In this document: positions 23,889-51,649 of the stretch, piece after piece
How positions within the stretch are numbered: position 1 is the stretch's first letter
How the letters are laid out: each line of letters starts with the position of its first letter
Virus record (IMG/VR): IMGVR_UViG_3300030099_003764
Length of the DNA: 64,000 nucleotides
Strand: one strand, 5' to 3'
Source: an uncultured virus (IMG/VR IMGVR_UViG_3300030099_003764)
Taxonomy: Duplodnaviria > Heunggongvirae > Uroviricota > Caudoviricetes
Program-made: the position numbers and the translations under genes
The notes under the pieces: model-generated
What the model was told of the DNA's origin: nothing
Database searches by the model: none
What the model saw: only the letters and a program-made list of their open reading frames with translations

Positions 23889-24770
23889 TTACCACCAATC
23901 GTCTAAGTTTTTCTGTATTTTACCGGTTCTTATGCTTGACAAATCCCACTCCATAGCCTTGTAAATAGGCTTTGCCTTCTCTACTACCTGTTCGGCGTAG
24001 TGCTTCCAATCGGGTACATAACCCTTGAAATCTGCGTAGGTTGTGCCGGAAACATATTCTGCATTTCTCTTCTCTCCTGTTAATGGATGAGTATATGTTT
24101 TATGCAAATGCTTTGCTTTTAGAAATAAATAGGAATCATCAAACTCCACATTAGTATGTTCCCAAGCATAAAGCATACCTGCAATACCTTCACCAAGAGA
24201 AGGTTTTTTGTTTTCTAAGGTAACAAATAATTTACCTTCTGTGCCACATTTTTTGCACCATTTGATAGGCTCTTTGATGTGATGTTTTAATCCGCAATCG
24301 GGACACTTAACAGTCAAACGATTGCTTCTTAGTCTTGCTCTTTTGATAATGGATTCAATATCTATTTTACCTTCTAATACAGAAACATAAGTATCGTGCA
24401 GATACCTATTGATTTCTTCTTTAGATTTCTGCTGAACCCACATCTTCAAAGCAGTAGTTTGAACATCTTTTGCTAATTTAGTTTCACTAACTCTTTTAGC
24501 AGTAAAACCTGTCATAGTGAACTTTTGTTCATCCAGCCACTCTCCATCATCCCATGATACTAAACCAGCATTGCGATTTTTTGTAGTACCAACACCTAAT
24601 GCTGAGAAGTATTTTTCAAACTCCAAAACGACAGGGTGTTCGTCTAAACCTAATACATTAGGAAAATGTTCTCTAACACTTGCTTCTATTTCTTTGATAG
24701 CAGTTTGAGCCTTTTCAACTGAATCAATCTGAACATAGATTGAGTCTGTATGCCCATAAACTACTTTCAT
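23889..24770 (-). CDS. polB: Family B DNA polymerase, C-terminal subunit (motif C + thumb) of a split enzyme
   Basis: Begins 'YGHTDSIYV' (motif C variant), 'LEFEK', 'KNRNAG'; contains a CPDC...CKKC insertion. Confidence 0.85.
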   Translation of the reverse strand: MKVVYGHTDSIYVQIDSVEKAQTAIKEIEASVREHFPNVLGLDEHPVVLEFEKYFSALGVGTTKNRNAGLVSWDDGEWLDEQKFTMTGFTAKRVSETKLAKDVQTTALKMWVQQKSKEEINRYLHDTYVSVLEGKIDIESIIKRARLRSNRLTVKCPDCGLKHHIKEPIKWCKKCGTEGKLFVTLENKKPSLGEGIAGMLYAWEHTNVEFDDSYLFLKAKHLHKTYTHPLTGEKRNAEYVSGTTYADFKGYVPDWKHYAEQVVEKAKPIYKAMEWDLSSIRTGKIQKNLDDWW

Positions 24771-25763: not shown

Positions 25764-27416
25764 TCATATTTTCATCTCCTTTGCCTTAAATGCGGCTAAT
25801 CTGATTGCTTCTCTAGCACTTGCAGTAATAGAAGCCGCTAATTTAGGATTAGCCCAACTAAAGCCGGTATATCCGATAATGCCATAAAAAGATGCAGATA
25901 GCCTTTTTACTGCCATTTGGTTATTATACCATTTTCTAAACTCATCTTCAGTTTGAGCATTCTTCATATTGCTCTTGTAAGAGTTTCTTAACTCCTTCAA
26001 TTCTAATACTGCTCTTGGCAAAACGCCTAATTTATCAGTCTTGAAATAAACCATATCTTCTGCCACAGGCTCGCTGAAATCTCTTGGTGTTAAGATATTT
26101 ACTGCAAACTCTGTTGGTTTGTCTGAAATGGTTTCCCAACTAATATTCCTTGCAATCATCATTGAAGGATATAGGCCAGCAAAATCAAAAGCGGCTACAT
26201 TAAGATGTAGCCCGTTTGTATCTTCACTTAACGGGTCATAAATCATAGCCCCTTGATATGATTGCTTCTTCTCATTTTTGTTTCCTGTTGGTGCTTTCCA
26301 ATAGGCATTTCTCATAAAGTAAATACTACCCATATGCGAAGCATAGAAACAAGCATCAAATGGTGCTTTCAATAATCGTTGTAGAGCAATAATCGCTTCA
26401 CTACAATAATTAGTTTCATCTATTTCAACAATCAATTCTACATCTTTTAGAGCATACTGTGAATAAGTTTCTGAATCTTCTAACCAACCTCTACGGTAAA
26501 ACTCGTTAGGGTCAGGAAACTTTTCTGAAACTAACTTCTTCTTATTAAGTAAAGATTCAGATACATAATCCAAAGATAGAGAAGGCAATGTTCCTCTTTG
26601 CGAGTCATTCCATTGTCTTTCAAAAGCCATGTCTAATGAGAGGGTTATGCGACCCCCTATGGGCTGTTCTATTGGCGAGAATCCTTTTTCACCTCTATTG
26701 TATTTGTAGCCATCCTTAGTCTTTTTTAGACCATCTACACGGTTAATCGGTGACATTCTATTAGGGTTAATTCCTAACGCACAACATCTTTCAAGAAGTT
26801 TAGGTATATCTGCAAAGTTACCGAACCAAGCAATTAGCATGTCAGGGTCTTTGTCTATCATAGTATTAATGAAATGTTCAAGCATTTCTTTTTCAGAATT
26901 AAAAGCATACATTTGTTTATATTGTAAAGTGGAGAATCCGTTAGATTTTCCATTAGGAAACCAAATCCATTGGTAATACTTCTCATCATAATTATCATAC
27001 ATTACAATAGTAGTAATTTCATTATGGTGTTCTCCGCCTTGTTGCCATTCCATATCCCAATACCATTTACGCATTTTATACTCCGGCATTTCGTGTATTT
27101 CATCTACTGCGTATCTGAATGTATATGGTACATCAGCCTCATAAGTCTTAGAAAACTTAGATTTTGCTTTTCTAATATCAAAGGAGTTTTCAACATAAAC
27201 CTTCTTCAATCGTTCACCATCTATATTTACCCAATCACCCGTTTCATACTCAAACTCACGCTCAATGTATTTGTTAGGTGCATAGGTACGATGTTCAGTT
27301 TCACTGTTATTAACAAAAAAGTACGGTCTGAAAGGAATTAATTCAAACTTCTTTTCACCGTTCTCTCTCCATGATTTGTATATATGTTTGCCATCTAAAC
27401 ATCTACTGATTATCAA
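25764..27416 (-). CDS. polB: Family B DNA polymerase, N-terminal subunit (3'-5' exonuclease, motifs A and B) of a split enzyme
   Basis: Exo 'WDME', 'YALKD'; motif A 'DFAGLYPS'; motif B 'KRLSASFYG'; ends just before motif C. Likely TTG start at 27416 (ORF track extends to 27470). Confidence 0.9.
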   Translation of the reverse strand: MIISRCLDGKHIYKSWRENGEKKFELIPFRPYFFVNNSETEHRTYAPNKYIEREFEYETGDWVNIDGERLKKVYVENSFDIRKAKSKFSKTYEADVPYTFRYAVDEIHEMPEYKMRKWYWDMEWQQGGEHHNEITTIVMYDNYDEKYYQWIWFPNGKSNGFSTLQYKQMYAFNSEKEMLEHFINTMIDKDPDMLIAWFGNFADIPKLLERCCALGINPNRMSPINRVDGLKKTKDGYKYNRGEKGFSPIEQPIGGRITLSLDMAFERQWNDSQRGTLPSLSLDYVSESLLNKKKLVSEKFPDPNEFYRRGWLEDSETYSQYALKDVELIVEIDETNYCSEAIIALQRLLKAPFDACFYASHMGSIYFMRNAYWKAPTGNKNEKKQSYQGAMIYDPLSEDTNGLHLNVAAFDFAGLYPSMMIARNISWETISDKPTEFAVNILTPRDFSEPVAEDMVYFKTDKLGVLPRAVLELKELRNSYKSNMKNAQTEDEFRKWYNNQMAVKRLSASFYGIIGYTGFSWANPKLAASITASAREAIRLAAFKAKEMKI

Positions 27417-27417
27417 T

Positions 27418-28218
27418 TCAATCTCCCCTTGTATAAGGTGCTTTAACTGCCACCTTAGAATGACCCACAATCAATAGCGGAAAATCATCCTTAACATAGA
27501 AATTAATCAAAGGCTGGTCTTTGAAAAACTTATGAAGTGGCCCACTATATTGCAATGTAGCAGGTTCTCCTAAGCCATGAAGAGGCCTAATTGATTGACA
27601 AAAACTGTTAGCAGTACCGTTATTACTATCAACTTGCAATGCACATTGAAGTCCTTTTTCTTCATCCGGCGGGAAATAATCTAAAAGATAAACTCCACTC
27701 TTGACTAATTCACAACCGCTAATTGCATCATCAAATACTTCTGATGTTAGTTGAAAAGCCCCCTCAAAGGACTTAGAACCAAAATCAGGAATTGTTCGAG
27801 GAACAGTTTCAAACTCTATGCCTTTAATCATCTGCCTAATTCTTGTTATTGCATCAATGTTAGGATGCTGAACCGCCGCAGGTATAGTGGCGGTTTTATA
27901 ACCGCTACCAACATGCAAACAATCCTCATATGCTACTGATATTGAATCACCACTAAACTTCTTTAGATAAGGTACGATAGTTTCTGCACTGCCTGTAAAT
28001 GAACCATTACTATGTCCTTCTACTTCAAGACTTAATTTAAGTCCACAGGTAGTATCTCCATTCCATAATGTTAAATCATTACCTTCTAATTCCATATATA
28101 CATACGGGCTAAGTTTAGAATTGGAAAATCCTTTGTCTCCCAAATACATACCTTTACCTTGTATGTCCTCTAATGCTTTTGTCAATACCTTTGGTGCTAC
28201 ATTAAAACTCATATTCAT
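27418..28218 (-). CDS. Putative sliding clamp (PCNA-like)
   Basis: ~265 aa with a two-domain repeat pattern, C-terminal 'DDFPLLIV...VAVKAP'; adjacent to PolB and near RFC. Confidence 0.6.
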   Translation of the reverse strand: MNMSFNVAPKVLTKALEDIQGKGMYLGDKGFSNSKLSPYVYMELEGNDLTLWNGDTTCGLKLSLEVEGHSNGSFTGSAETIVPYLKKFSGDSISVAYEDCLHVGSGYKTATIPAAVQHPNIDAITRIRQMIKGIEFETVPRTIPDFGSKSFEGAFQLTSEVFDDAISGCELVKSGVYLLDYFPPDEEKGLQCALQVDSNNGTANSFCQSIRPLHGLGEPATLQYSGPLHKFFKDQPLINFYVKDDFPLLIVGHSKVAVKAPYTRGD

Positions 28219-36021: not shown

Positions 36022-36390
36022 TCACTCTTCTTCATCAGGTACAGCCCCTTGCTCTATACTATTCATTAACCTAACAAAGTTAATCATCATAGTTTGAATT
36101 AAAGAGGCTTCTTCATTTTTATTCTGTTCCATCAAACGATGTAACATATGAATCATAGAAGCCTGTGTAATGGCTGGTGCCATTCTTGCTAAGTTATCAC
36201 TTTGGTACATTTCCCAATACATCACAAATGATGCTCTTGGTAGAAACATACCGTTTCTAACTACTACATAATTGCTCTCGAAATGGCCCAATGCAGCAGG
36301 GTTGTTCTTAATTTTCTTTTTCATGGCTTTTGCCCATTCAACAAATCTTTTATCATTTGTTACATCTAAAAATATCTTATTTAGGTTCAT
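36022..36390 (-). CDS. Hypothetical protein
   Basis: 122-aa ORF. Confidence 0.55.
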   Translation of the reverse strand: MNLNKIFLDVTNDKRFVEWAKAMKKKIKNNPAALGHFESNYVVVRNGMFLPRASFVMYWEMYQSDNLARMAPAITQASMIHMLHRLMEQNKNEEASLIQTMMINFVRLMNSIEQGAVPDEEE

Positions 36391-36659
36391 TCTTCTTCAT
36401 CTCCATTTGGTAATTCTAACATGGCCTTCAATATGATATTCTGAAACTTATTCCAACATATCTCAATATGTTCTTTTGTTACTCTTGAACCCCTACCATG
36501 CCTTGCAGGTACTTCCATGCTCAATTCAACAAAAGAAGCCCATAAGTCTATCAATTCAGATGTTCTCTTACGATGCCTTCCTAAAGCACCCATTTCATAC
36601 TGCCGCCATTCATTCGCTTTTCTTACGCTCTTTTTCATTTGTACTTCACTTATTCTCAT
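36387..36659 (-). CDS. Putative divergent histone-fold protein
   Basis: 'ARHGRGSRVTKEHIEICWNKF' parallels the archaeal histone L2-a3 pattern ARHAGRKTIKAEDIELA. Confidence 0.4.
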   Translation of the reverse strand: MRISEVQMKKSVRKANEWRQYEMGALGRHRKRTSELIDLWASFVELSMEVPARHGRGSRVTKEHIEICWNKFQNIILKAMLELPNGDEEE

Positions 36660-37359: not shown

Positions 37360-38880
37360 CTATTCCTCTCTCAAAACTGCTACTTCAGTAGTTAGGAAAA
37401 GTTTTGCTATTGACATAGCCGCAAGGAAACTGTTCCTTGTTACCTTTACAGGGTCTACAATACCCAATTCAAACATATCCCCTACTTCACCGGTCATTGC
37501 ATTAAGGGATTCATTCTCCTTTAGCCTATGAATGATGTCAGCATAATAGATACTACTATTATCACATAATACCTCAAGTGGTGCTTGAAGTGAATCATAA
37601 ACAATATGTTGTCCTTTCTTTGCTACATCTAAATAGTTTCTTGCATTAAGAAGTGCTTTACCGCCACCGATTACAATACCCTCATCAAGTGCCGCTTTAG
37701 TAGCATTAAGGGCATCGTCAAGTCTTTCTTTGGTTTCACGCATTTCCATTTGTGAAGATGCGCCAACTTGAATAGTAGCAATACCGCCATTCAATCTTGC
37801 AATACGCTTTTTGTATCGCATCTTGTCAAACTTGTCATCTGATGATTCGTACAACTCTTTCAAGGATAGCACTTTGTTTTGCTTAGAATCAGAACCAGCA
37901 TTACCGCCGCCAATGATAACTGTATTATCTTTGGAAATAATTACTTTATCAGCAGTGCCTAACTCATCTAATGTTGTCATTGATGGGTCGTCCTTGCTTT
38001 CCTCATTAAACATCTTTCCACCACAAACAGTTACGATGTCGTCTAACTCATCCAATTGAGCATCACCGAAGTTTGGTGCTTTTACCACCGCTACTTCAAT
38101 TGTCTTTTGAAGCACATTCATGATTACATTACTTAATGCAGTGCCTTCCATGCCACGACAAATGATTACTAACGGTTTCTTATTCTTAGCACACAACTCC
38201 AACAACGGCAGTATGTCTTGGAAATGCCTAATGTTTAGATTAGATGAAAAGATAACAGGATTATCAAATGTTACTTTACCATCATCCCCATTACACATCA
38301 TATGACTTAGATAACCTTCATCAAACTCTAAACCACTTCTTGTAACTATTTGTGTTTTATGAGTTTTAGATTCTTCAACCGTAATGATGCCGTCACGCCC
38401 TACTGCACTAATAGCCTCTTGAATTAGAGAACCTAACTCATTATCATTATTAGCCGCAATAGTAGCAACATTTAGAATATCATCATCAAGAATAGGAGTC
38501 GCATTATCTATTAGATAAGCGGCAATAATTTCTTGAGCCTCTTCTAATTCATTCTGAAGGACTCTGATATTGTAATTCTCCTGTTTTTGAATATTATCAA
38601 CAAGTGCTTGAGCAATAATACAAGCAGTTGTTGTACCATCACCGGAATTATCTTGTGCTTTGCTTGCTAAGTTTTGAACCATTTGTACTCCCATCTGAAC
38701 ATACGGGTCATTACTTGATACATACTTAGTGATAGTAACTCCGTCATTAATCACAACGGGAGGATTACCTTGTAGAATTACCGTCTTTGCCTGTGGCCCT
38801 AATGTGGGCTTAACTGTATTTGCTACCAAATCAATTCCTTCTTTCAGTTTTTCCTTTACTTCTTCTCCATTAATTATCAT
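37360..38880 (-). CDS. groEL: Group I chaperonin GroEL
   Basis: 'TLGP', 'NDGVTI', 'GDGTTTA', 'KAPNFGD', 'DALNATKAA', 'GIVDPVKV'. Confidence 0.95.
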   Translation of the reverse strand: MIINGEEVKEKLKEGIDLVANTVKPTLGPQAKTVILQGNPPVVINDGVTITKYVSSNDPYVQMGVQMVQNLASKAQDNSGDGTTTACIIAQALVDNIQKQENYNIRVLQNELEEAQEIIAAYLIDNATPILDDDILNVATIAANNDNELGSLIQEAISAVGRDGIITVEESKTHKTQIVTRSGLEFDEGYLSHMMCNGDDGKVTFDNPVIFSSNLNIRHFQDILPLLELCAKNKKPLVIICRGMEGTALSNVIMNVLQKTIEVAVVKAPNFGDAQLDELDDIVTVCGGKMFNEESKDDPSMTTLDELGTADKVIISKDNTVIIGGGNAGSDSKQNKVLSLKELYESSDDKFDKMRYKKRIARLNGGIATIQVGASSQMEMRETKERLDDALNATKAALDEGIVIGGGKALLNARNYLDVAKKGQHIVYDSLQAPLEVLCDNSSIYYADIIHRLKENESLNAMTGEVGDMFELGIVDPVKVTRNSFLAAMSIAKLFLTTEVAVLREE

Positions 38881-39043: not shown

Positions 39044-39259
39044 TCATACCACCGCCAAGATAAACTCATAGGGAATAAAGAGTAATTCATTTCTCTTAGT
39101 ATATTCCCTACTATCATTAAAGGCAACCACTTTACCATTCAGTGACTTGTCACATTGACAATCAACCACTCTACCTTCATTGGTTGCCTTAGTTAAGATA
39201 CCACTTTCGCTCTTTGTTTCTTCTATTTTTACAATAACATAATCTCCTACTGCTCTCAT
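39044..39259 (-). CDS. groES: Co-chaperonin GroES-like
   Basis: 'AVGDYVIVK...SESGIL...GRVV...ILAVV'; upstream of GroEL. Confidence 0.7.
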   Translation of the reverse strand: MRAVGDYVIVKIEETKSESGILTKATNEGRVVDCQCDKSLNGKVVAFNDSREYTKRNELLFIPYEFILAVV

Positions 39260-39522
39260 TTTTTCACCTCAAACTTATTCTGCCTTGCTATTTGACAACA
39301 TACTCTGATTTTGTCTGTTGAATGAAGAGTCCAAAACTCATCATTCTCCCAACCAAACTTATGTTCAATATAGCGGCACAACTGCTTACGATTCATCTTT
39401 TCAAAATCATCATCAATGTCTATTCCGAGGATAGGGCCGCCCTCGTTCTTTAGGAATGAATCAAGGATAACATAAACTCGACCCATACCATTGATTGTCT
39501 TTCTAAGTAACCATTGAATCAT
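39256..39522 (-). CDS. Hypothetical protein
   Basis: 88-aa ORF, coupled to neighbours. Confidence 0.55.
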   Translation of the reverse strand: MIQWLLRKTINGMGRVYVILDSFLKNEGGPILGIDIDDDFEKMNRKQLCRYIEHKFGWENDEFWTLHSTDKIRVCCQIARQNKFEVKK

Positions 39523-39797
39523 TCTTCTTCACCGTTGATATTAACCCATCCTTTATTCATATCTGAATCAATGAAAGTCCAAATGTGATTCTTGTGAAAC
39601 TCCATTAGGTCATTGTAGGAATTACCTTTCTTACCATTAATCACACCTCTAACTTTAGATTCATTCTTATCGTTAGGATGCCTTTGCGAATGAAGTTTCC
39701 TTCTCATGCGTAAAGGCATTCTTTCAGAAGTATTCAATGCTCTTTCTTGATATTTTCTCATAGTGCTTTGACCTGTTTTTATTCTTCTAATTCTCAT
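39519..39797 (-). CDS. Hypothetical basic protein
   Basis: 92-aa ORF, coupled to neighbours. Confidence 0.5.
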   Translation of the reverse strand: MRIRRIKTGQSTMRKYQERALNTSERMPLRMRRKLHSQRHPNDKNESKVRGVINGKKGNSYNDLMEFHKNHIWTFIDSDMNKGWVNINGEEE

Positions 39798-40285
39798 TCT
39801 TCTTCACTACTCCATCTTTGCGTTTGCCATAATCTGTATTCTTTGTAGATAGTTAGTTGTTTAGGGTTCTTATTATCCCATATACCGTGATGGCCCCTAC
39901 CACCCAATACTACTGCATTGTGCATTAGTGGTTCCCAAATAGAAACTGTCCCAATATCAGTACCACTAAAATAAGCGGCACCAAACGGATGAGTATGAAT
40001 CCAGCATACAATAGGTAATTTCATACCAACAGGGTCTACCTTGAAATCGACATAACCTGCGGTTCCCGATGAAATATGTAGATTGTCTTTAGCATCAATT
40101 ACTACTTGCACTTCAAGCCCATTTAGGACTTGAGTAGATGCAAACCAAATAGAATCCCAAAAACTCTTGCACGACCAATCACCAGCATATGCTTCAGTTA
40201 TAATTTCTTTAACCAAATTATCTTTTGCTGACCTTTCCCATATTTCCAATTCTTCTCTTGCTTCAGTCCAATCAAAATCACTCAC
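39794..40285 (-). CDS. JAB/MPN+ metalloprotease (deubiquitinase-like)
   Basis: 'LEVQVV' ... 'WIHTHPFGAAYFSGTD' = E...HxH-x7-S-x2-D JAMM motif. Confidence 0.8.
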   Translation of the reverse strand: MSDFDWTEAREELEIWERSAKDNLVKEIITEAYAGDWSCKSFWDSIWFASTQVLNGLEVQVVIDAKDNLHISSGTAGYVDFKVDPVGMKLPIVCWIHTHPFGAAYFSGTDIGTVSIWEPLMHNAVVLGGRGHHGIWDNKNPKQLTIYKEYRLWQTQRWSSEEE

Positions 40286-41283
40286 TGTTTCACTTCCATC
40301 TTCTTTAGTTTCTTCTTAGTCCTATCAATCTTCTTTTGAAGTTTCTTTGACTTTCTATCGCTTCTTCTATCTTTCCATCTTTGCAATAAAGACTTCTTTA
40401 CAGGTAGCGATTGAGTTTTCATATTATTCTTAATTTCAGTAGCCCTTCTCATAATGGTTTCACTTGTATCATAATAAAAGTCATAGTGCTTTTCTACATG
40501 CTTTGCTATCACCCAATAAGGACGGCCAAACTTCTGTCTTGCTTCATCAATAGGTAGACTATGCCACATAACCATAGCCTCTAATGATTCATTATAAGTC
40601 CAAGCCTTGTGTGTATTAGGATAACTAACAGTTGCAATACCCATTGTTACAGGCTTATCCTCTTTCGTATGATTATTTACATATTCAGCCCTTGTACCGT
40701 TAAGGTTACGCTTGCTCAATACTCTATTCCAACGAGCGACGATAGCCTTGTATGTTCGGCCCTTGAATAAAGTAGGAGGCGGATATTTTCCTTTAGTGGT
40801 TTTCCACTCAATAACAATATCATCCTCATCAGAAGTCCATCTCTTGTGATTAGTCTTTTTAGACTTAGACTTTTTCCTTTCTTTATAGGCAGTTTCTTCA
40901 GCCTTATTCGCATCTCCCTCTAAAGCATTAATCATTTCAGTTGCCTGTTCTTTAGTAAAATCTCCCTTATTAGCAGAAGTAATTAGTTGATTAGTTAATC
41001 TTTCTAATTCCTTCTTAGTGCCATTCGTTAGAGTTAAACCTGCAATATACTTGCATTGCTTTCTTGTAGCAGGGTCGTCTTTCCAATGAGGCGCACTTGT
41101 GGTTTTAACATCATATTCCTTTTGGATTCTTCTGATTGTTCCACTAACATTAGGGCCACTTCTTCTCTTATATCCCGCTTCTACTAATGCGTCAGCCACT
41201 TTAGCCCAAGACATCCCTTCTTCTCTGCATTTTATTGCAAGTCCTATTTCTTCTGTTGACCAATTACTATATACCATAATCAT
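40282..41283 (-). CDS. Basic protein with Myb/SANT-like HTH repeats
   Basis: Three W[ST]xxE repeats ('WSTEE', 'WTSDED', 'WTYNES'). Confidence 0.55.
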   Translation of the reverse strand: MIMVYSNWSTEEIGLAIKCREEGMSWAKVADALVEAGYKRRSGPNVSGTIRRIQKEYDVKTTSAPHWKDDPATRKQCKYIAGLTLTNGTKKELERLTNQLITSANKGDFTKEQATEMINALEGDANKAEETAYKERKKSKSKKTNHKRWTSDEDDIVIEWKTTKGKYPPPTLFKGRTYKAIVARWNRVLSKRNLNGTRAEYVNNHTKEDKPVTMGIATVSYPNTHKAWTYNESLEAMVMWHSLPIDEARQKFGRPYWVIAKHVEKHYDFYYDTSETIMRRATEIKNNMKTQSLPVKKSLLQRWKDRRSDRKSKKLQKKIDRTKKKLKKMEVKQ

Positions 41284-41289
41284 TCCTCC

Positions 41290-41850
41290 TTATACATTTA
41301 ACATCATAAATGACTTTACTTGTTCGTCATTAAACCATCTTTGAATCCATTGTGCGCCAATTCCGGCGATTGCAGTTTGCATGAAATGAACGCCACTATT
41401 GCTACCATCCCATGAATCTCCTTGACAACTGAATGAGCCTTCCGGCCCTGCTAATAATGTATCGTACATTTTAGGGTCAGCGTCATAAGTTACAAAAGCC
41501 GCATTGCGGCCTTGTGCCCTCAAGTCAAGCCACTTAATATCTGAATTGTATAGTGTTCTTCTAACTGATAAGTTATCAACACAACATACAACTAAATCAT
41601 ATCCTTGCATTTGTTTTGCAGTTAGTATAGGAAACTTAGAACCGCCATTAATACTGCGATACCTATTTCCCATAACCGATGCTTTGTTTTCTCCTACATC
41701 TTCTTCACTAAAGTTTTGATACGGCAGATTCTTTGTTTCTACCTTATCGGGGTCTGCTACTGTAATAGCATATAATCCCACTTTATCCAATATAGGTACT
41801 AAGAAACTCCCAATACCACCTACTCCTATAATCAATATTTTTCTTTTCAT
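41290..41850 (-). CDS. E1/ThiF/MoeB-family adenylyltransferase
   Basis: 'IIGVGGIGS', 'DPDKVETKNLPYQ', 'NKA', 'CVDNLSVR', candidate catalytic Cys in 'SFSCQ'; start reassigned to MKRKILIIG. Confidence 0.85.
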   Translation of the reverse strand: MKRKILIIGVGGIGSFLVPILDKVGLYAITVADPDKVETKNLPYQNFSEEDVGENKASVMGNRYRSINGGSKFPILTAKQMQGYDLVVCCVDNLSVRRTLYNSDIKWLDLRAQGRNAAFVTYDADPKMYDTLLAGPEGSFSCQGDSWDGSNSGVHFMQTAIAGIGAQWIQRWFNDEQVKSFMMLNV

Positions 41851-42482
41851 TCTAATCTCTCCAAATTTGCATTCCATCTTTTATTATACGAATCTATTTC
41901 TTGATTGTATTTGTTTTTGTAATGGTCTTTAGGCCACCATTCGGGCATTCTGTTTTTTCTCCATTCGGCAAACTTCCATTTGCCTTCAAGGTAATAATGA
42001 CGATATTGTTCGATTACAAACTCCCACATATCTATGTCATTATTGTAGTCTAATCTGTACTTATCATCCATAGCAATAGTTACAGGTGTAGCATCTCTCC
42101 ATCTACCGTCACTTGGTAGATATTGTGTTGTATCTAATATCCTCTCTTGCGAGCCATGCTTCTTTCCGTAGCGATGTGTATATTCAGTACAAAGAGCCAA
42201 CCCATGCGTGTATAACCATAGAGTATTGTTAGGGTTCTGTCTTGCCCATATTGTTGAAGGATGATTCAACATAGCGGGTTTCATTAGATTTGAACCAATA
42301 TCTCTGTGAAATACTTTTAATTGAGCAAGTGTAGGTTCTTCACCATAATGTTCAATGTACTCAAAAAATAAAGCATTTGTATGTAACATTTGGCAAGTTT
42401 CTGTTGGCATTTTAACCACATGCTTGTCTAACATTTGAATTGCCGCTTCTGTCGGATTTTTTGATAATGCAAATATATTCAT
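41847..42482 (-). CDS. Pyrimidine-dimer DNA glycosylase (DenV-like family)
   Basis: 'MNIFAL...DKHVVKM..E..QML...NHP..IWAR...EYTHRYGKKH'. Confidence 0.7.
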   Translation of the reverse strand: MNIFALSKNPTEAAIQMLDKHVVKMPTETCQMLHTNALFFEYIEHYGEEPTLAQLKVFHRDIGSNLMKPAMLNHPSTIWARQNPNNTLWLYTHGLALCTEYTHRYGKKHGSQERILDTTQYLPSDGRWRDATPVTIAMDDKYRLDYNNDIDMWEFVIEQYRHYYLEGKWKFAEWRKNRMPEWWPKDHYKNKYNQEIDSYNKRWNANLERLE

Positions 42483-42761
42483 GTTAAATCCTCCATAGGA
42501 TATGGGACATTAAACTTGAAAACATAGTATTTGCGCTTTTTGCCTGTTACATATTCCCAATTAGTGTGTCCGAAAAAATCCATGCTGATTTTATCTAATG
42601 CTTCAGAAAACTCTTTCTCATCAAAATAAAACGGACTTTCTCTCATTTTTCTGCCTCCGTCAAACCTAATCCTAATTTTTTATACAACCAATCAATAAAA
42701 TGTTTATTATTCATATTTTGTTGTACGCATTCTATACATGCTATTGCTTTTTTATTATGAT

Positions 42762-42977
42762 TCATTGTTCTCCCGCCTTTTCTAAAGCAATAATTGTTCC
42801 CATTATGGTTTCTCTTGCTTTGTCAATATCGCCATTATCTATATGCGCTATTGCTACTGAGCATAACCCAACAATAGACATTCGTAGGGTTTTAGCCACA
42901 TCATCTACTGTTACTTGTGGCATTTCGTTCAATCTTTTTTGAAACTCCTTTAGGTTTTTATAATCGTCTATATTCAT
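42762..42977 (-). CDS. Hypothetical protein
   Basis: 71-aa ORF with GGAGG RBS. Confidence 0.5.
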   Translation of the reverse strand: MNIDDYKNLKEFQKRLNEMPQVTVDDVAKTLRMSIVGLCSVAIAHIDNGDIDKARETIMGTIIALEKAGEQ

Positions 42978-43109
42978 CTAAACTTCCTCCTTGCTTCTTC
43001 ATACATCTTAAATGTGTCTTTACGACCCAAAAGAGTTTGTTGCTTAACATACTCTTTTCTTTTCTTAATAGTGGTTACATAGGTATTCAGAAAGTCTCTT
43101 TTCCAATAT

Positions 43110-44015
43110 CTATGCTCGCTCACCGGTATCACATCTTTCATTCTTATTGTCATTTATATTCACTCCTTTTATTTCGGACATCTTACTATATCCTAACATT
43201 TCTATTATTTTCTTACTTGTCTTTCCTATTGCAGACAAGGAAACATCAGTGTTTTCTGATATTTCTGATTTAGTAATTCCTGTATATCTACACATATTTA
43301 CTGCTACCCAACATATACTTGCGTAGTATGCTCTTGGCTTATTGTAGCAGTGATATTCAATAATAGGTTCCATCTTCAACAGTAAATCAACTGCGTTAGA
43401 ATAGAACATAATATCATCAGTTATTTTACTACAAGTTTGCTTGAGCAAAAAGGTAGGGTCTGCACCATACAAGATATTCTTATTCTTGAAATGATGAACC
43501 ATTCTTTGAACCAACCTATTTACTATCTTAGTAGAACAAGAATACTCTGAACATAGTTTCTTCATTTCTACCGGAGTCCTGTTCTCTTTGAGAACATAAC
43601 ATACAGTAGCAGTACATCTTGTTTCTAACTTAATGTTACCAAACAAACCCTTTCTTTGTGCTTGCATATAACATTCTTCTACTCTATCCTTGAGAGGATG
43701 GTTTATCTGAATAGAAGATAATATCATATTGCATGTCTGTAATGCTTGAGTAATGTGTCTTGGTATTGCTAAGTTATTTCCTCTAACATTAAACTTAGAA
43801 GAACCTTTACCACTAATTATAGAACCCAATTTACCCTTATCGGCACTATGGATAACATTACCTTCATCAACCATTCTCACGGTTTCTTCAAACAATTCTG
43901 TAACTACTACTAAACCACATTCACTGCATTCAGTTTCGCCCATTCTTTCATTGTAATTAAATATCAGACTTCCACATTCCACACATTTCATTTTCATTCC
44001 TTCCTTCATTTTCAT
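43110..44015 (-). CDS. tfb: Transcription initiation factor B (TFIIB/TFB) homolog
   Basis: N-terminal Zn ribbon 'CVECGS...GETECSECGLVV', followed by two cyclin-like repeats ending in an HTH; true start probably near 43991. Confidence 0.8.
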   Translation of the reverse strand: MKMKEGMKMKCVECGSLIFNYNERMGETECSECGLVVVTELFEETVRMVDEGNVIHSADKGKLGSIISGKGSSKFNVRGNNLAIPRHITQALQTCNMILSSIQINHPLKDRVEECYMQAQRKGLFGNIKLETRCTATVCYVLKENRTPVEMKKLCSEYSCSTKIVNRLVQRMVHHFKNKNILYGADPTFLLKQTCSKITDDIMFYSNAVDLLLKMEPIIEYHCYNKPRAYYASICWVAVNMCRYTGITKSEISENTDVSLSAIGKTSKKIIEMLGYSKMSEIKGVNINDNKNERCDTGERA

Positions 44016-45312
44016 TGGTTTTGATATAGCCTCTAATTGTATTTACTAATGCTACCGTCATTGTGTCATTTAATAAAGCCAACGCCCTTGCTACGAATTG
44101 GTCGCCAACAGAAGAACCTGCTGACATATTATCAATACATATTGGGCCTTTCCATCTTGCTTTATTAGTAGGTTTTTGTGGCACTGTTATAAGTTGGCCT
44201 AATACTTGGTCGGTTAAGTCTTCTCCGCCTTGTTTAAGGTATGACTTTTTATCAACGACATCATCAAAAATCTCATATCCAGCATTTATCAAAACCTCTC
44301 TATTATGCTCAACAGTTTCATTATGTGAATCAATCCACTTTAATTCTGCTTCAGCAAACTCGGAATCGGTCTTATCGGTACTCCAAACATAGGTAGATAC
44401 TGCTTGAATATCTGACTTGTATTGGTTGTCTGTTATCTTCCAATCCCAACCTTTACCACGAATATACATAGCATCGGGTTCACCTTTCTTATTCCATGTT
44501 ACCTTGATTTTATCAGGGTATCTTTGTTCGACTTCTTTAACCAATTCTCTTGCTCTTTTCTCAACAATGTCTTGTTGCCTATTTTGCTTCATAAACTCTT
44601 TCATAACCTTAACATCAGATATTTTGGGCGTTACACCCATAGTCCTTTCATACAGGATTTCCGGTGAAGTAAAAGCCCACTTCTTGCTTCTTCTACGATT
44701 ATGCAAGTAGAAGGAACAAAACGATTCTAACTCTTTAGCAGTTAATGTTCCCCAAACACCATCAGCAACTTCAATGGCGATTTCATTATCCCCGATTTGT
44801 TGGCAGTTTAACCTAACACTAATTCTATCGAAATCATCAAAGAAGTGATAAGGTACTCTATTCTCTAAACAATACTTTACATCTTCGGGTAGTGCCAATG
44901 AAGCATACAATGATTTCATTAATTTACCTGCATCCTTTTCTGTAACTGACTTGAATACTAATCTTGCTAAAGCAGAGGCGATAGTATTCAAACTCTCAGT
45001 TTTACCATTAAGACTTAATCTATTGTTAGTTCTACCAAGTGCTATGAAACACCCACCGATATTAAGCACTATTTGATAATCTCCCGAATACGGGAAATCT
45101 ATGAAGGTGCCATGACTGTTCCTTCGATAAGAAGTATTTTTCTTTAATTGACTTCTCATAAACTTAAACAGTGTATCGTGAACAGGGTCTTTTGCATTCC
45201 TGTTACCATGTAGCGTAGCAACGGCATTATGACAATTATCTCCCTCGATTGTTGTTTCCCAATATTTTCCACTATCATTCGGTTGTCTTATTCTTATTCT
45301 TAATACTCCCAT
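43957..45312 (-). CDS. Hypothetical protein; C-terminal segment possibly E2 (UBC)-like
   Basis: 451-aa ORF; 'GPICIDNM...ARALALLND' resembles the E2 active-site GxICLD followed by a helix ending LLxD. The fold call is weak. Confidence 0.35.
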   Translation of the reverse strand: MGVLRIRIRQPNDSGKYWETTIEGDNCHNAVATLHGNRNAKDPVHDTLFKFMRSQLKKNTSYRRNSHGTFIDFPYSGDYQIVLNIGGCFIALGRTNNRLSLNGKTESLNTIASALARLVFKSVTEKDAGKLMKSLYASLALPEDVKYCLENRVPYHFFDDFDRISVRLNCQQIGDNEIAIEVADGVWGTLTAKELESFCSFYLHNRRRSKKWAFTSPEILYERTMGVTPKISDVKVMKEFMKQNRQQDIVEKRARELVKEVEQRYPDKIKVTWNKKGEPDAMYIRGKGWDWKITDNQYKSDIQAVSTYVWSTDKTDSEFAEAELKWIDSHNETVEHNREVLINAGYEIFDDVVDKKSYLKQGGEDLTDQVLGQLITVPQKPTNKARWKGPICIDNMSAGSSVGDQFVARALALLNDTMTVALVNTIRGYIKTNENEGRNENEMCGMWKSDI

Positions 45313-45437
45313 TTTATCACATCATATATGTATTATCATCTAATTTTTCTAAACAGGCTAAATGAGCCTCTTTCTTCATTTCTTCAGGCAACAATAATTG
45401 CCCTCCACAAATCCTACATTTGGTCGCTATTCTTTCT

Positions 45438-45806
45438 TTATACGACCAATGGCTCTTTGTGTATTCTGGATTCTTTTCCTTCATTGTTCCACCTCTCTAA
45501 TTTTGCACATACTTCACAATACTCATTACAATTTTTATCGTGGTAATGTAAGGCATCAAGTCTTTCATTAAAATGTTGTCTTGCAAACTTTCTGAAACCC
45601 ATATCAACGGCTTCTCTATTTTCCCACAAAACTATTTTCAGACTTTGCCATAATCTAAATCGCTTGTCCTTTTCTTCAGAAAGCGAATCACAAACATTGA
45701 ATGTTTGTCTTAATCTTTTTCTTGCTTTTTTAGACCAATCAAAAGTTGTCACTACTCTTTTCATATCCTCATAGGACATATTACGGAGTCGTGGCAACCT
45801 ATACAT
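45438..45806 (-). CDS. Hypothetical protein
   Basis: 122-aa ORF after a GGTGA RBS. Confidence 0.55.
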   Translation of the reverse strand: MYRLPRLRNMSYEDMKRVVTTFDWSKKARKRLRQTFNVCDSLSEEKDKRFRLWQSLKIVLWENREAVDMGFRKFARQHFNERLDALHYHDKNCNEYCEVCAKLERWNNEGKESRIHKEPLVV

Positions 45807-45814
45807 TATTTCAC

Positions 45815-47674
45815 CTATACTTCACAAGCACCGCCAGCACAAGCCAATTCGCCTGTTAAGTCGGTATTATCTTCGGTTTCTATAACCTGTGTTAAATCAA
45901 TATTCTTTAGATTCTTAGACATAGTTAGATAAGTTTCCTCATCAATCGTTTCAAACGGTGCCTGTTTGTATGTTCCTCCATCATAAGGTAATACAGACAA
46001 ACCGTTGTAATAGTGTCTATTCATCCAAAGCCATTCACCAACATCATCCCATTCATCTTCTTTTACGGATATTGTTGCTGAAACATTATGGGTATTCAGA
46101 CCATCTATATGACCTTCTCTAACCCAACGAATACTGAAGTTTTTCACACGCTCTAATAAATCAAATACTGATTCATGTCGTGTAATAGAACCGGCAGGTG
46201 CTTTCTGTGGTATAGAAATAACTGCCTGTTCATCGGGATTAAAGTATTCATCTTCAACCAATTCCGGTTGATTCTTCAGTAGATAAGAATAAATTGCTTC
46301 ATTCTTACCAACTCTAATCCTACGAATATAATAATTATCATGCCAAGCATGAATACCACTACTTGTACCTAATACAAGCGAAGTGGTTCCCGCAGGTTTT
46401 ACACAAGTAATTCTTGCGGCAGGTTTTACTCCAATGAGTTTAGCAATACGCTTATTTTCCTGTTTAGCGGCAAACGCCGCCATTTCCAAATCTAAACCTT
46501 CAACAACATTAGAAGCAATACCTGTCATAGATACACCAAGCAAAGAATCCTTTTCGGTATTCTTTCTCCATACTTCTCTAAGATAGTGGAAATCTGTATA
46601 ACCTGCTTGTAGTGTTCCTAAGAACGAAGCGGCTTTTACCCTCGCTTCTAAATCTGCTTGGTCTTTTACATTAGAAGCGTTTACTTCTGTGAGATTACAA
46701 AACTGATATGGTCGAAGTGCTATTTCACAACATGGATTAGTACCCCAATCTTTGTCATTACTGAAATAAACTGCTGGTTCACCGCTACCACTATGTTGTA
46801 TTCTTTCCCATAGACCCATAAAGAAGTCTTTAGTTACTCTATGTCTAAGAATAACTGCTGAATTATTTGCACGGCCTCTCTGTGGGTTATTCTCCCACCA
46901 ATTACCGGACTTACAACTAATCATCTTTGAATCATCAGCACTGAATAAACTAATCATAGCGGCTCTACGAATACCACCGGCTAATACTGCATCTGCTAAA
47001 TAACACATAATGTCATGTGCTTCAATAGATTCTAATTTAGAGCCATTAGTTTTATTTTGAAGTATTCCTTCTATTTTAACTAAACATTCCCTTAATGGCT
47101 GAGAACCCGGTGCTTTACCGCCACTTGTCTTTAATAGCGTTCCTTTCGGTCTAATATCAGAATAATCAAAAATAGGACTACTACTCCTATTTCCGGTATA
47201 ACACTCCAAAAGGATTTTAATTGAATCAGCCCATCCCTCGATAGAATCGCTAATAAGATACCTGCGTTTTCTTTCGGGATTAGGTTGTATGATTTCTGGT
47301 AATTTATCAATATGATGTCTTTGGACTGAATATCCAACTCCCGTTCCACCGAGAAGCAAGAACATAGCCTCGCTAAAAGATAAAACGGAATCAATAGGCA
47401 TATAAGCACAATTATACACCCTATTTGGACTAATTTCAATAGGCTTGCCCCCAAATTGCATAGAACGCATAGAAGGGAGGATTTTCTTTGTTTTGACATA
47501 TTGCTCATATATTTCACCGATTTCTTTTGTTAATTCAGGATATTTTTTAATGTGCATATTTCTATTTCTTATCCATATCCCATCCCAAGTTTCTCTTCTT
47601 TTGTGTGCAGGTAAATACCTTGCATACTTCATATGTACTGTAATATCCGATAATGTTTCAATTTCATTCGACAT
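45815..47674 (-). CDS. nrdJ: Class II (adenosylcobalamin) ribonucleotide reductase
   Basis: 'YNCAY', 'GTGVGYSV', 'GGIRRAAMI', 'TNPCCEI', 'CNLTE', 'VKPAGT', C-terminal 'CAGGACE'; no class I beta subunit in the window. Confidence 0.9.
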   Translation of the reverse strand: MSNEIETLSDITVHMKYARYLPAHKRRETWDGIWIRNRNMHIKKYPELTKEIGEIYEQYVKTKKILPSMRSMQFGGKPIEISPNRVYNCAYMPIDSVLSFSEAMFLLLGGTGVGYSVQRHHIDKLPEIIQPNPERKRRYLISDSIEGWADSIKILLECYTGNRSSSPIFDYSDIRPKGTLLKTSGGKAPGSQPLRECLVKIEGILQNKTNGSKLESIEAHDIMCYLADAVLAGGIRRAAMISLFSADDSKMISCKSGNWWENNPQRGRANNSAVILRHRVTKDFFMGLWERIQHSGSGEPAVYFSNDKDWGTNPCCEIALRPYQFCNLTEVNASNVKDQADLEARVKAASFLGTLQAGYTDFHYLREVWRKNTEKDSLLGVSMTGIASNVVEGLDLEMAAFAAKQENKRIAKLIGVKPAARITCVKPAGTTSLVLGTSSGIHAWHDNYYIRRIRVGKNEAIYSYLLKNQPELVEDEYFNPDEQAVISIPQKAPAGSITRHESVFDLLERVKNFSIRWVREGHIDGLNTHNVSATISVKEDEWDDVGEWLWMNRHYYNGLSVLPYDGGTYKQAPFETIDEETYLTMSKNLKNIDLTQVIETEDNTDLTGELACAGGACEV

Positions 47675-47692
47675 TCTAAAACCTCATAACGC

Positions 47693-47739
47693 AAAAAAAA
47701 GGGGAGAGAACGGGTGCCCAAAAAACCCGTTCTCCCCCC
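47693..47739 (-). terminator. Hairpin + T-tract terminator downstream of the Ubl gene
   Basis: GGGGAGAGAACGGGT...ACCCGTTCTCCCCC with an adjacent A8 on + (T-run on -). Confidence 0.75.
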
Positions 47740-47769
47740 AAAAGAGCAGACTAACTCTACTTAATGAAA

Positions 47770-47970
47770 TTAACCGCCTACAATAGCAGGTGTCAAATCC
47801 ACCATTTCTACATCGTCCCAATTAACTTCACTGATTGCTTCTCTTGCTACCAATTCGCCGTTGATAAATACCCAATGTGTAGGGTGTGTATCAATTTGCT
47901 CGATAACTTCTTCAGAAGCCATAACCAATTCAGTATGTCCTGTTTCGTTCAAAATAGTAATCTTAATCAT
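47770..47970 (-). CDS. Ubiquitin-like beta-grasp protein (ThiS/MoaD/SAMP-like) ending in Gly-Gly
   Basis: 66 aa; 'VFINGE', 'DDVEMVDLTPAIVGG*' matches the ThiS/MoaD C-terminal D..V.L.P...GG. Confidence 0.8.
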   Translation of the reverse strand: MIKITILNETGHTELVMASEEVIEQIDTHPTHWVFINGELVAREAISEVNWDDVEMVDLTPAIVGG

Positions 47971-51036: not shown

Positions 51037-51381
51037 TCAAAAGGTCTTGCCGTGCATAAACTCACGGCTTTCGTTATATTCCATCTTAGCAACAATAGCA
51101 CCTGCGACATCTAAGTCTTTACCAAAGGCATAATCCATAATGCGGATTACTGCGTCTGCTAATTCTTCTTCGAGATTACTAAACTCCATAATCTTATTTG
51201 AAGAAGGATTGCCTTCACGCAACGCCTCCAATGCTTCAGAAATCTCTGCATGAATCAGAGCCATTCTTTCACCATCATTTACTTCTTCTTTCCAAAAACC
51301 ATGATTAACTGCATTCCTATAAACCTTCTTTGCCTTCTTATTCCATTCTTTTTCAAAACTCAAACTCAACACCTCTCTCAA
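51037..51381 (-). CDS. MazG-like nucleotide pyrophosphohydrolase
   Basis: 'LIHAEISEALEA...EEELADAVIRIMD...KMEYN'. Confidence 0.85.
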   Translation of the reverse strand: MREVLSLSFEKEWNKKAKKVYRNAVNHGFWKEEVNDGERMALIHAEISEALEALREGNPSSNKIMEFSNLEEELADAVIRIMDYAFGKDLDVAGAIVAKMEYNESREFMHGKTF

Positions 51382-51649
51382 TTGCTAATTTTTCTAATTT
51401 AGCCACATGCCTTTTTGGTGCATGTTTTTTGGCTACTATTTGAATCAATGATTCCGACAAGTTTTCTGATACCGGTATGATAGTAGCACAACTACTACAT
51501 ACCGGCTTGTGTGATTTATCACATCTTGTCACTGATTTGATTTTGCCACAAAAATTACATGTTTCATTTTTAGTTTCCATATGTCTTAATCCTACCATAT
51601 TCATGCCTCCTTTTCTAATTCTATTCGTAGTGTGTTGAACGCATACCAA
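51353..51649 (-). CDS. Small zinc-binding protein
   Basis: 'CNFC...C...VCSSC'; true start probably near 51598. Confidence 0.5.
   Translation of the reverse strand: MVCVQHTTNRIRKGGMNMVGLRHMETKNETCNFCGKIKSVTRCDKSHKPVCSSCATIIPVSENLSESLIQIVAKKHAPKRHVAKLEKLAIERGVEFEF

Follow-up and report, generated by a model that had tools for sequence, protein, structure and literature searches.

How much of a ubiquitin-like (Ubl) protein-tagging pathway can a virus of archaea carry by itself? The question is raised by a stretch of 64,000 nucleotides (nt) from an uncultured virus (IMG/VR record IMGVR_UViG_3300030099_003764), referred to here over its full length as the window, in which a preliminary description made from the letters alone had proposed a Ubl conjugation set: a small tag ending in Gly-Gly, an E1/ThiF enzyme, a JAMM (JAB) protease and a possible E2. 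By its gene content the window is a magrovirus-like tailed archaeal virus genome. In a computational follow-up, the tag, the E1 and the protease were all found on the minus strand within 8 kb, as had been described (Table 1). Based on predicted folds, conserved motifs and gene linkage, the virus probably encodes a self-contained Ubl protein-modification pathway, which would be a diverged copy of a pathway of its Poseidoniales (marine group II) host.

The small protein is predicted to be a Gly-Gly-ended beta-grasp tag

The 66-residue protein had been called beta-grasp-like, and a different fold had been named beforehand as evidence against the whole proposal. Its AlphaFold2 model (predicted local distance difference test, pLDDT, 91.6) showed the strand and helix order of a beta-grasp protein with a loose C-terminal tail. 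In a Foldseek search with this model, the matches listed (ranks 1–50) were all ubiquitin, NEDD8 or ISG15, with E-values of 5e-3 to 1.7e-2 and template modelling (TM) scores of 0.27–0.49; nothing was found at E ≤ 0.001. The nearest structures to the tag were ubiquitin, NEDD8, MoaD and ThiS. The tag is thus predicted by its model and the Foldseek matches to be a beta-grasp protein, a fold that by itself cannot tell a modifier from a sulfur carrier. At the level of sequence the protein matched no Pfam family at E ≤ 0.1, including ubiquitin, ThiS and MoaD, and its family profile reached single ubiquitin at E 0.4–1.5 only, the low E-values obtained against polyubiquitin being the sum over nine weak repeats.

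Relatives of the tag were numerous, with 476 in a large protein collection. The Gly-Gly pair was invariant in 24/24 aligned sequences, and A-[IV]-[IV]-G-G was kept in 115 of the 120 closest cluster representatives, the remaining five comprising three with a Ser variant before Gly-Gly and two that had lost one Gly. What follows the pair in these 120 representatives was far less uniform: 49 had no tail, and 66 had tails of 1–4 residues of at least 29 different kinds. A fixed Gly-Gly followed by a freely variable tail looks like a precursor that is cleaved. A search of 1.84 billion representatives added 72 distant relatives. Three of these consist of three tandem tag copies, each ending in VGG, and several contain the tag twice; in two, an E1 is fused to one or two tag copies, the E1 part matching the window's enzyme at 2.5e-21 and 1.4e-22; and in several the tag is fused to a further domain of ~250–300 residues, called the Cys-domain below. 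Single-protein scans of viral contigs with a tandem tag (P0126), a tag-E1 fusion (P0162) and a tag-Cys-domain fusion (P0176) found nothing, and the alignment of two-copy tags was too variable for profile scanning.

An E1-like enzyme is predicted to hold the end of the tag

The second gene had been described as an E1/ThiF enzyme with a nucleotide-binding loop, and its 186-residue product indeed matched Pfam ThiF (PF00899; 6.3e-19, 68.5 bits, cut-off 28.1). The assigned start agrees with the homologues, 14/14 of the viral ones beginning at the Met equivalent to position 41850. Across viral and distant fused relatives (14/14), the invariant positions comprised the loop itself (GxGGxGS), D33, D35, E38, N41, Q45, K56, D92, R97, WLDLR at 107–111, S141-C142-Q143 and GAQW, with C142 as the sole invariant Cys of the enzyme. 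The nearest relatives in the PDB were the ThiF-type structures 9egb–9egd, for which a describing paper was not found in the searched literature, followed by UBA5 and Uba4. A word search found no longer, fused E1 forms, which is weak evidence.

Co-folding of the E1 with the tag had been suggested as a check, and two E1 copies plus one tag were modelled together with controls. The pair passed these controls, with an interaction score (interaction prediction score from aligned errors, ipSAE) of 0.63 against 0.02 for the best control; the mark applied to this score is reached by 116/157 solved complexes and by 2/215 mismatched pairs. The runs agreed in at least 97% of contacts, and the pLDDT of the partners was at least 83. 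Tag residues 60–66 contacted E1 residues 11–13, 90–92, 110–118, 140–142 and 158, so that both the nucleotide-loop and the D92 regions met the C-terminus of the tag. Gly66 itself touched the nucleotide loop (residue 13), residue 90 beside Asp92, and R111, and C142 lay in the interface. These contacts would place Gly66 in the adenylation pocket, and the modelled complex fits activation of the tag by the E1.

A predicted JAMM protease with an invariant motif

The third gene encodes the complete HxH-x7-S-x2-D motif that had been reported for it, and E58, H97, H99, S107 and D110 were invariant in 24/24 aligned JAB homologues. Against Pfam Prok-JAB (PF14464) the protein scored 19.3 bits, under the cut-off of 25, and over residues 90–114 only. 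Its family profile matched AMSH-LP (2.7e-3), AMSH (0.01) and an Rpn11-like protein (0.055) in the PDB, and also Sst2, over the HxH...S..D stretch; a higher-ranked match to a WD40 protein was rejected as a repeat artefact. The structural model (pLDDT 87.5) gave a clearer picture. Among the Foldseek matches listed (ranks 1–50) all were JAMM/MPN proteins, namely AMSH, Sst2, CSN5, AfJAMM, Rpn11, PfJAMM1, BubCD and RadC (E 1.7e-3 to 2.3e-2, TM 0.23–0.42, probability up to 1.00), and the protein is accordingly predicted to have the JAMM/MPN fold.

A separate observation concerns the end of this gene, where the codons GAA GAA GAA stand directly before the stop. Similar EE or EEE C-termini were seen on 9/85 predicted window proteins, for example those encoded at 39519-39797, 39794-40285 (the JAMM gene), 36022-36390 and 36387-36659 on the minus strand, and they recur in JAB homologues and in ORFs (open reading frames) of one other viral locus (L014).

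The genes stay together in related viruses

Failure of the genes to co-occur in related viruses was the second outcome that had been named as speaking against the proposal. When viral loci were anchored on the E1, a JAB gene lay downstream in 14/14. The tag lay 3.0–6.3 kb upstream of the E1 in 8/14 loci, which are all eight that hold the usual tag position; the six loci without a tag match hold only 169–4,176 bases upstream. To avoid anchoring on the system itself, we also used an unrelated conserved gene (o133, the 133-residue protein in Table 1) as an independent anchor in 80 loci. Where these contained enough upstream DNA, the linkage was strict for JAB (58/58), the E1 (50/50) and a 451-residue protein with a C-terminal Cys motif (44/44), and the tag was found in 30/43. 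The tag of the window is 10.7 kb from this anchor and hence beyond the 10-kb flank; a layout of this kind may account for part of the 13 misses, which include the window's nearest relative. The o133-anchored loci are 73–98% identical in the anchor gene, and the counts refer to this viral lineage, not to all magroviruses.

Table 1. Positions of the proposed Ubl genes and of two neighbouring genes in the window.
Feature	Position	Strand	Remarks
Ubiquitin-like modifier (predicted), 66 aa	47770-47970	minus	Ends LTPAIVGG before the stop; G65-G66 = 47773-47778
Minimal E1-like adenylating enzyme (predicted), 186 aa	41290-41850	minus	ORF open back to 41877; C142 codon 41425-41427
JAMM/MPN+ metalloprotease (predicted), 163 aa	39794-40285	minus	E58...H97-x-H99-x7-S107-x2-D110; HxH...D at 39956-39997
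Candidate carrier, 451 aa	43957-45312	minus	C-terminal G-P-I-C392-I-D-N; Cys codon 44137-44139; 3' end overlaps the TFB gene
Lys-rich protein, 333 aa	40282-41283	minus	Between E1 and JAB; context only, membership in the system not demonstrated
Zinc-ribbon protein, 133 aa	36843-37244	minus	N-terminal CxxC...CxxC; beside GroEL

A homologous operon in Poseidoniales chromosomes

We scanned species-representative genomes with the E1 alignment and retained 80 of the 241 places confirmed. The three best cellular places (L017, L018 and L019; 53–54% identity) were on contigs assigned to metagenome-assembled genomes (MAGs) of Maricaulis and Altibacter and held the Cys-domain gene, E1 and JAB in the viral order; as this is a viral gene order in bacterial MAGs, the contigs are probably viral and were binned wrongly. 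Most of the next-best places belonged to Poseidoniales, Thalassarchaeaceae or 'Euryarchaeota' MAGs, at 28–36% identity to the viral E1.

Among the 45 cellular loci with an E1 profile match at E ≤ 1e-30, a same-strand JAB of the same family was present in 39 and was adjacent, overlapping or in the same frame in 37; in 7 loci E1 and JAB shared one open frame, and in 21 a tag was found. The six loci without JAB were from Micrarchaeota, Methanosarcinales and two Methanoperedens records, together with L061 and a locus that is truncated. The ORF layouts included a 429-residue E1-JAB fusion preceded by one or two tag genes that end in VGG and one further residue, a fusion of two tag copies to an E1, and a fusion of two tag copies to the further domain with E1 and JAB behind it. 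Cys-domain proteins of 400–440 residues stood directly upstream of tag-E1-JAB in 8/45 loci (own profile, E ≤ 2.4e-51). In five loci (L031, L037, L050, L054 and L069) a second, free-standing protein between tag and E1 matched the tag-fused domain (E 2e-7 to 2e-4), and these operons may carry two paralogous Cys-domain proteins.

The tag was present in 4/4 whole host genomes checked; in one of them a frame with two copies lies outside the operon, and one has a frame with three. The E1 family was found in 85/151 genomes of the host order, an absence from an incomplete genome being no proof; the host order is defined here as the order of one host whose record title reads Thalassarchaeaceae, which is a Poseidoniales family. 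The same 4/4 host genomes encode, apart from it, a full-length gene of the ThiF/MoeB type (E 1e-76 to 1e-80). The short E1 is therefore an additional paralogue, distinct from the enzyme that serves housekeeping sulfur carriers. The 33 ORFs flanking seven host operons were housekeeping genes (CoA mutase, ribonucleotide reductase (RNR), aminotransferase, glycosyltransferases) or unknowns, with no recognisable defence islands among them. The chromosomal operon did not figure in the preliminary description, and it reframes the viral genes as a viral copy of a host pathway.

In three Poseidoniales-type loci (L043, L044 and L057) a class II RNR lies ~1.1 kb from E1-JAB. In the virus, the RNR gene stands between those of the tag and the Cys-domain protein, and the resemblance may be a coincidence.

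A candidate carrier with an invariant cysteine

The possible E2 had been put forward without coordinates; the gene meant is probably that of the 451-residue protein in Table 1. Its motif G-P-I-C-I-D-N ... G-D-Q ... R-A-x-A-L-x-N-D was invariant in 9/9 aligned sequences, and the Cys was present in all locus ORFs inspected. In profile-profile comparison (hhalign), the viral protein matched the host Cys-domain proteins with a probability of 82% (E 1.1e-5), the match being centred on the Cys and the host Cys aligned with Cys392. The host proteins in turn matched the domain that follows the tag copies in the fusions (probability 74%, E 2.7e-5). Since the direct comparison of the viral domain with the tag-fused domain was not significant (probability 2.6%, E 0.017), the two are tied together only via the host proteins. 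By context and its invariant Cys the protein is a candidate carrier, and judged by sequence it is not a member of the UBC family.

Genuine UBC-type E2 genes (UQ_con above cut-off, with HPN...C) do occur in the wider group and were found in 77/301 sampled Thermoplasmatota genomes (G156–G391; L186–L205). Among the genomes listed without such a match were three known to be of the host order. UQ_con likewise had no match in the nearest related record, a fragment of 12,951 bases (G001).

Proposed pathway and alternative explanations

The predicted folds, the motifs, the gene linkage, the tag fusions, the variable tails and the co-fold all speak for the earlier suggestion that the virus runs its own tagging pathway; its conjugation chemistry is what we infer from them, and its E2 is not recognisable as UBC. 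In the pathway as we envisage it, the JAMM protease would expose the C-terminal Gly-Gly of tailed or tandem tags (the window's tag already ends in Gly-Gly) and could also remove the tag from targets. The 186-residue E1 would then bind the tag and adenylate Gly66, after which the activated tag would pass by thioester formation to C142 of the E1, to Cys392 of the 451-residue protein, or to both in turn. Finally, the tag would be joined to amino groups of host or viral target proteins. Such a pathway would work without a canonical E2, in the manner of archaeal sampylation or of bacterial Bil systems. More tentatively, and as a possibility that we would not yet favour, magroviruses and marine group II may have in common an undescribed four-part system, composed of a single, tailed or tandem tag, a zinc-less mini-E1, a Cys carrier that is non-UBC by sequence, and a JAMM protease, of which the virus would hold a complete copy that tags host or viral proteins during infection.

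Several results weigh against a self-contained viral pathway of this kind. The E1 is atypical, being short and without a CxxC zinc site. E1 enzymes usually have a motif NxxRQ with a conserved Arg; this Arg position is Tyr in the viral E1s and His in the fused relatives and host ORFs. The NCBIfam scores of the E1 were all far under the cut-offs (ThiF, 55.6 against 275; PRTRC ThiF, 46.6 against 145; UbaA, NF047750, 30.4 against 450). For the candidate catalytic Cys that had been pointed out in the E1, the signs are mixed: C142 is invariant and lies in the predicted tag interface, but HMMER paired it with the leading Cys of the CxxC zinc motif in UBA5 and not with a catalytic Cys. Because an E1-Ubl pair is a textbook, well-represented complex, the co-fold may have passed merely through its likeness to solved complexes. 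Polyubiquitin-like chains are unlikely, as the tag has one Lys only (K3).

The candidate carrier adds to these difficulties. It matched no Pfam, PADLOC or NCBIfam family, including UQ_con and Prok-E2, gave 0 matches at E ≤ 10 in a profile search of the PDB, and belonged to no named Atlas cluster. When compared by hhalign with 17 genuine Thermoplasmatota UBC proteins, both the viral and the host profile obtained a probability of 0.2%. The hallmark of UBC/E2 proteins is an HPN motif before the active-site Cys. HPN...C was present in the alignment of the genuine Thermoplasmatota proteins, and the family of the 451-residue protein had no His-Pro-Asn; an Asn stood 8–9 residues before the Cys in some of its sequences and not in others. 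For the earlier suggestion of an E2 there is thus a linked candidate with an invariant Cys, and no sequence likeness to UBC.

Support from expression was thin as well. In a marine RNA library (two runs of one sample in one study), short contigs without differences covered parts of the JAB, Lys-rich, E1, Cys-domain, RNR and tag genes. DNA carry-over is possible, and the window itself may derive from this very sample, so that these contigs give a weak hint of expression, and stretches without cover are uninformative.

The presence of a homologous operon in the host order brings up a different, though unlikely, explanation, namely that the viral copies disturb the host's pathway, with the JAMM protease stripping host tags from viral proteins and the tag and E1 serving as a decoy or sink. 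Were the host system antiviral, like the bacterial Bil systems, such interference would amount to counter-defence. The low identity between viral and host E1s would fit divergence under conflict, and Borg elements carry many JAMM 'deSAMPylases', which their authors, in the available part of the paper, suggest to be a response to a SAMP-based host defence (PMC12660748). A pure removal strategy would not need a tag, an E1 and a Cys protein, and the retention of the E1 and the Cys-domain protein, as strict as that of JAB, counts against it, with the tag kept as well. Moreover, the seven host loci examined lie among housekeeping genes. The PADLOC library (2023), which may predate Bil models, gave nothing for the tag, JAB and Cys protein; its Cap2-type E1-E2 models matched only the Rossmann part of the E1 (its first 70–100 residues, within 2–103).

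A sulfur-carrier function, which we consider rather improbable, would begin with the same adenylation of the tag by the E1 and lead to a thiocarboxylate, from which a cofactor, a tRNA or a modified nucleotide would receive its sulfur; the part of the JAMM protease would be confined to maturing the tag. The beta-grasp fold and the ThiF-like scores keep this reading alive, and a thiocarboxylate-only role is compatible with the computation. The partners of such a route were sought by profile scans. In the window these scans brought up none of the sulfurtransferase, rhodanese, PP-loop, MoaE and ThiG families, and no sulfur-transfer family was met among the 33 ORFs flanking seven host operons; the E1 itself has no rhodanese domain. 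It had been stated before that the window encodes no thiamine, molybdopterin or tRNA-thiolation enzymes, and this agrees with the scan of 82 window proteins (18 proteins of the region at E ≤ 0.1, 64 others at E ≤ 0.001), in which none were found. The separate ThiF/MoeB gene of the hosts also argues against a sulfur carrier, as do tandem tags and fusions of the tag to the E1 or the Cys-domain, which the available part of Iyer et al (2006; PMC1779556) presents as features of conjugation-type operons.

Still less probable is an acceptor other than protein, such that the Gly-Gly end is joined to a lipid, a polyamine, a peptide or a nucleic-acid end and the Cys-domain protein is the transferase. 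The minimal E1, a carrier that is not UBC and the single Lys of the tag would suit this, as would the position of the genes among replication and transcription genes; MccB, an E1-like enzyme with non-protein chemistry, was also among the PDB matches of the E1. Nothing positive was found for any particular acceptor, and the relatives nearest to the JAMM protein in fold are all protein isopeptidases. That the genes are unrelated neighbours or decaying remnants without joint function, as their interleaving with TFB, RNR, glycosylase and other genes over 8 kb might suggest, is hardly credible in view of their strict co-occurrence across viral loci, the invariant catalytic residues, the fusions among relatives and the compact host operons.

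Relation to described systems

The nearest described counterpart of the proposed viral pathway is archaeal sampylation, which in Haloferax volcanii comprises SAMP1–3, the E1 UbaA and HvJAMM1. The two have in common a small Gly-Gly-ended beta-grasp tag, a ThiF-family E1, a tag-removing JAMM protease, no canonical E2 and the archaeal setting. They differ in that the viral E1 has 186 residues and neither a zinc motif nor a rhodanese domain, scoring 30 bits with the UbaA model against a cut-off of 450. The magrovirus tag has no ThiS or MoaD match in Pfam, and tandem precursors and fusions occur among its relatives. Furthermore, a conserved Cys-domain protein travels with the magrovirus set, the host keeps a separate canonical ThiF/MoeB, and this copy is carried by a virus. 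CysO/Mec+ and QbsE/QbsD are sulfur carriers matured by JAMM proteases. Like these, the magrovirus set combines a Gly-Gly-ended beta-grasp protein, extra C-terminal residues to be cut by a JAMM protease and activation by a ThiF-family E1; unlike them, it has no sulfur-transfer partner in the window or beside the host operons, and it has tandem and E1-fused relatives.

In bacteria, class 6 Ubl-E2-JAB-E1 clusters are now called Bil systems. In comparison, the magrovirus carrier is not detectable as UBC or Prok-E2, the magrovirus genes are scattered over 8 kb, and their owners are a virus and an archaeal host instead of a bacterial defence island. Tandem Ubl domains, Ubl-ThiF fusions and operons of E1, E2, JAB and Ubl genes in bacteria, as well as Ubl-JAB pairs of phage tails, are described in the accessible part of Iyer et al (2006; PMC1779556).

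E1-family genes have been noticed in archaeal viruses before and were linked by the authors to ubiquitin-like modification. According to the parts of these reports that were available, a MoeB/ThiF gene linked to ubiquitination ranks with the auxiliary genes that archaeal viruses carry most often (RaFAH paper, PMC8276007), and Nidhogg viruses of Asgard archaea have three E1-like genes (bioRxiv 10.1101/2021.07.29.454249). Those parts give the E1 only, whereas the magrovirus set adds a viral tag, a JAMM protease, a carrier candidate and a host operon. Borg elements resemble the window in being archaeal mobile elements with JAMM proteases and a Gly-Gly-ended beta-grasp tag: as far as the available text goes, they carry multicopy JAMM 'deSAMPylases' and one SAMP, their function having been inferred by co-folding (PMC12660748). 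In the same text the protease is the multiplied component and the E1 of the authors' example is that of the host, whereas the magrovirus, a tailed virus of a different archaeal order, has one protease and its own E1, tag and Cys-domain protein.

The main text of three magrovirus papers (PMC5434244, PMC10160649 and PMC11706807) does not contain ThiF, JAB, ubiquitin or MoeB, although their supplements may list such annotations. No paper combining magrovirus and ubiquitin was found in the literature search, and papers combining Poseidoniales and ubiquitin were, by title or abstract, on other subjects. The NCBI entry 'Poseidoniales virus YSH_150918' includes a relative of the tag named hypothetical protein, which is also the name of those public clusters of the system's proteins that were looked up; two JAB relatives were named 'proteasome lid subunit RPN8/RPN11' by JGI. 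A DNA search of public phage records matched part of the RNR only, and the E1 protein matched nothing there. Hence, the kind of system is known and E1 genes in archaeal viruses had been noticed; the full viral set, a candidate carrier and a homologous host operon were not found in print. If magroviruses do run the four-part system suggested above, theirs would be the first complete Ubl cascade known to be encoded by a virus of archaea, possibly with a carrier enzyme family of independent origin. Tagging by a virus whose host has a counterpart would be a new lever in archaeal virus-host interplay. The very small E1-tag pair (186 + 66 residues) with its non-UBC Cys partner should be easily expressed and could show a minimal Ubl cascade.

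Genome context and neighbouring genes

Tail genes (Phage_tube_2) occupy one arm of the window, and the other arm holds a replication block on the minus strand with a family B DNA polymerase (two ORFs), an RFC-like clamp loader, an ATP-dependent ligase, ERCC4 and Cas4-like nucleases and a UvrD helicase. The minus-strand arm also encodes GroEL, a class II-like RNR, a TFB-like protein and a pyrimidine-dimer glycosylase. GroEL and RNR are group B features in the available part of the first magrovirus paper (PMC5434244). ARAGORN found no tRNA in the window.

The genes said to be interleaved with the Ubl set were recovered for the most part. Pfam matches were obtained for the pyrimidine-dimer glycosylase (5.5e-8), the RNR (3.3e-8) and, below the cut-off, the TFIIB zinc ribbon of the TFB-like protein (1.5e-4). 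The supposed Myb-repeat gene fared differently: the Lys-rich protein between E1 and JAB matched no family in Pfam (E ≤ 0.1), PHROGs, PADLOC or NCBIfam. Relatives of it at 26–83% identity were found by tblastn between E1 and JAB in 10/14 E1-anchored viral loci. L011–L014 had no tblastn relative, and L014 has an unmatched 260-residue ORF at the same spot. It was considered as an E2 candidate and dropped for want of a family and for its low conservation.

The 133-residue zinc-ribbon protein was 56–98% identical in 14/14 E1-anchored loci and present in 104 viral stretches. It had no family match in Pfam or PADLOC, one NCBIfam hit far under the cut-off and no Atlas lead. It too was dropped as an E2 candidate, its sole non-ribbon Cys being lost in L014 and neither family nor Atlas giving a lead.

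Three further features of the minus strand were noted. Just upstream of the viral GroEL gene (37360-38880), a GroES-like ORF of 71 residues (39044-39259) matched Pfam Cpn10 at E 0.002 with 18.6 bits against a cut-off of 21.1 and had relatives in 12/14 viral loci; a co-chaperonin was not expected in the available part of the first magrovirus paper (PMC5434244). The two ORFs of the family B DNA polymerase (23889-24770 and 25764-27470) lie ~1 kb apart with small ORFs between them. Finally, an ORF of 98 residues (51353-51649) matched PADLOC models for Cas10a (E 1.6e-5) and Cas10 (1.7e-4) over a model part of ~60 residues; the match could reflect a zinc module common to both, or the ORF could encode a viral protein related to CRISPR.

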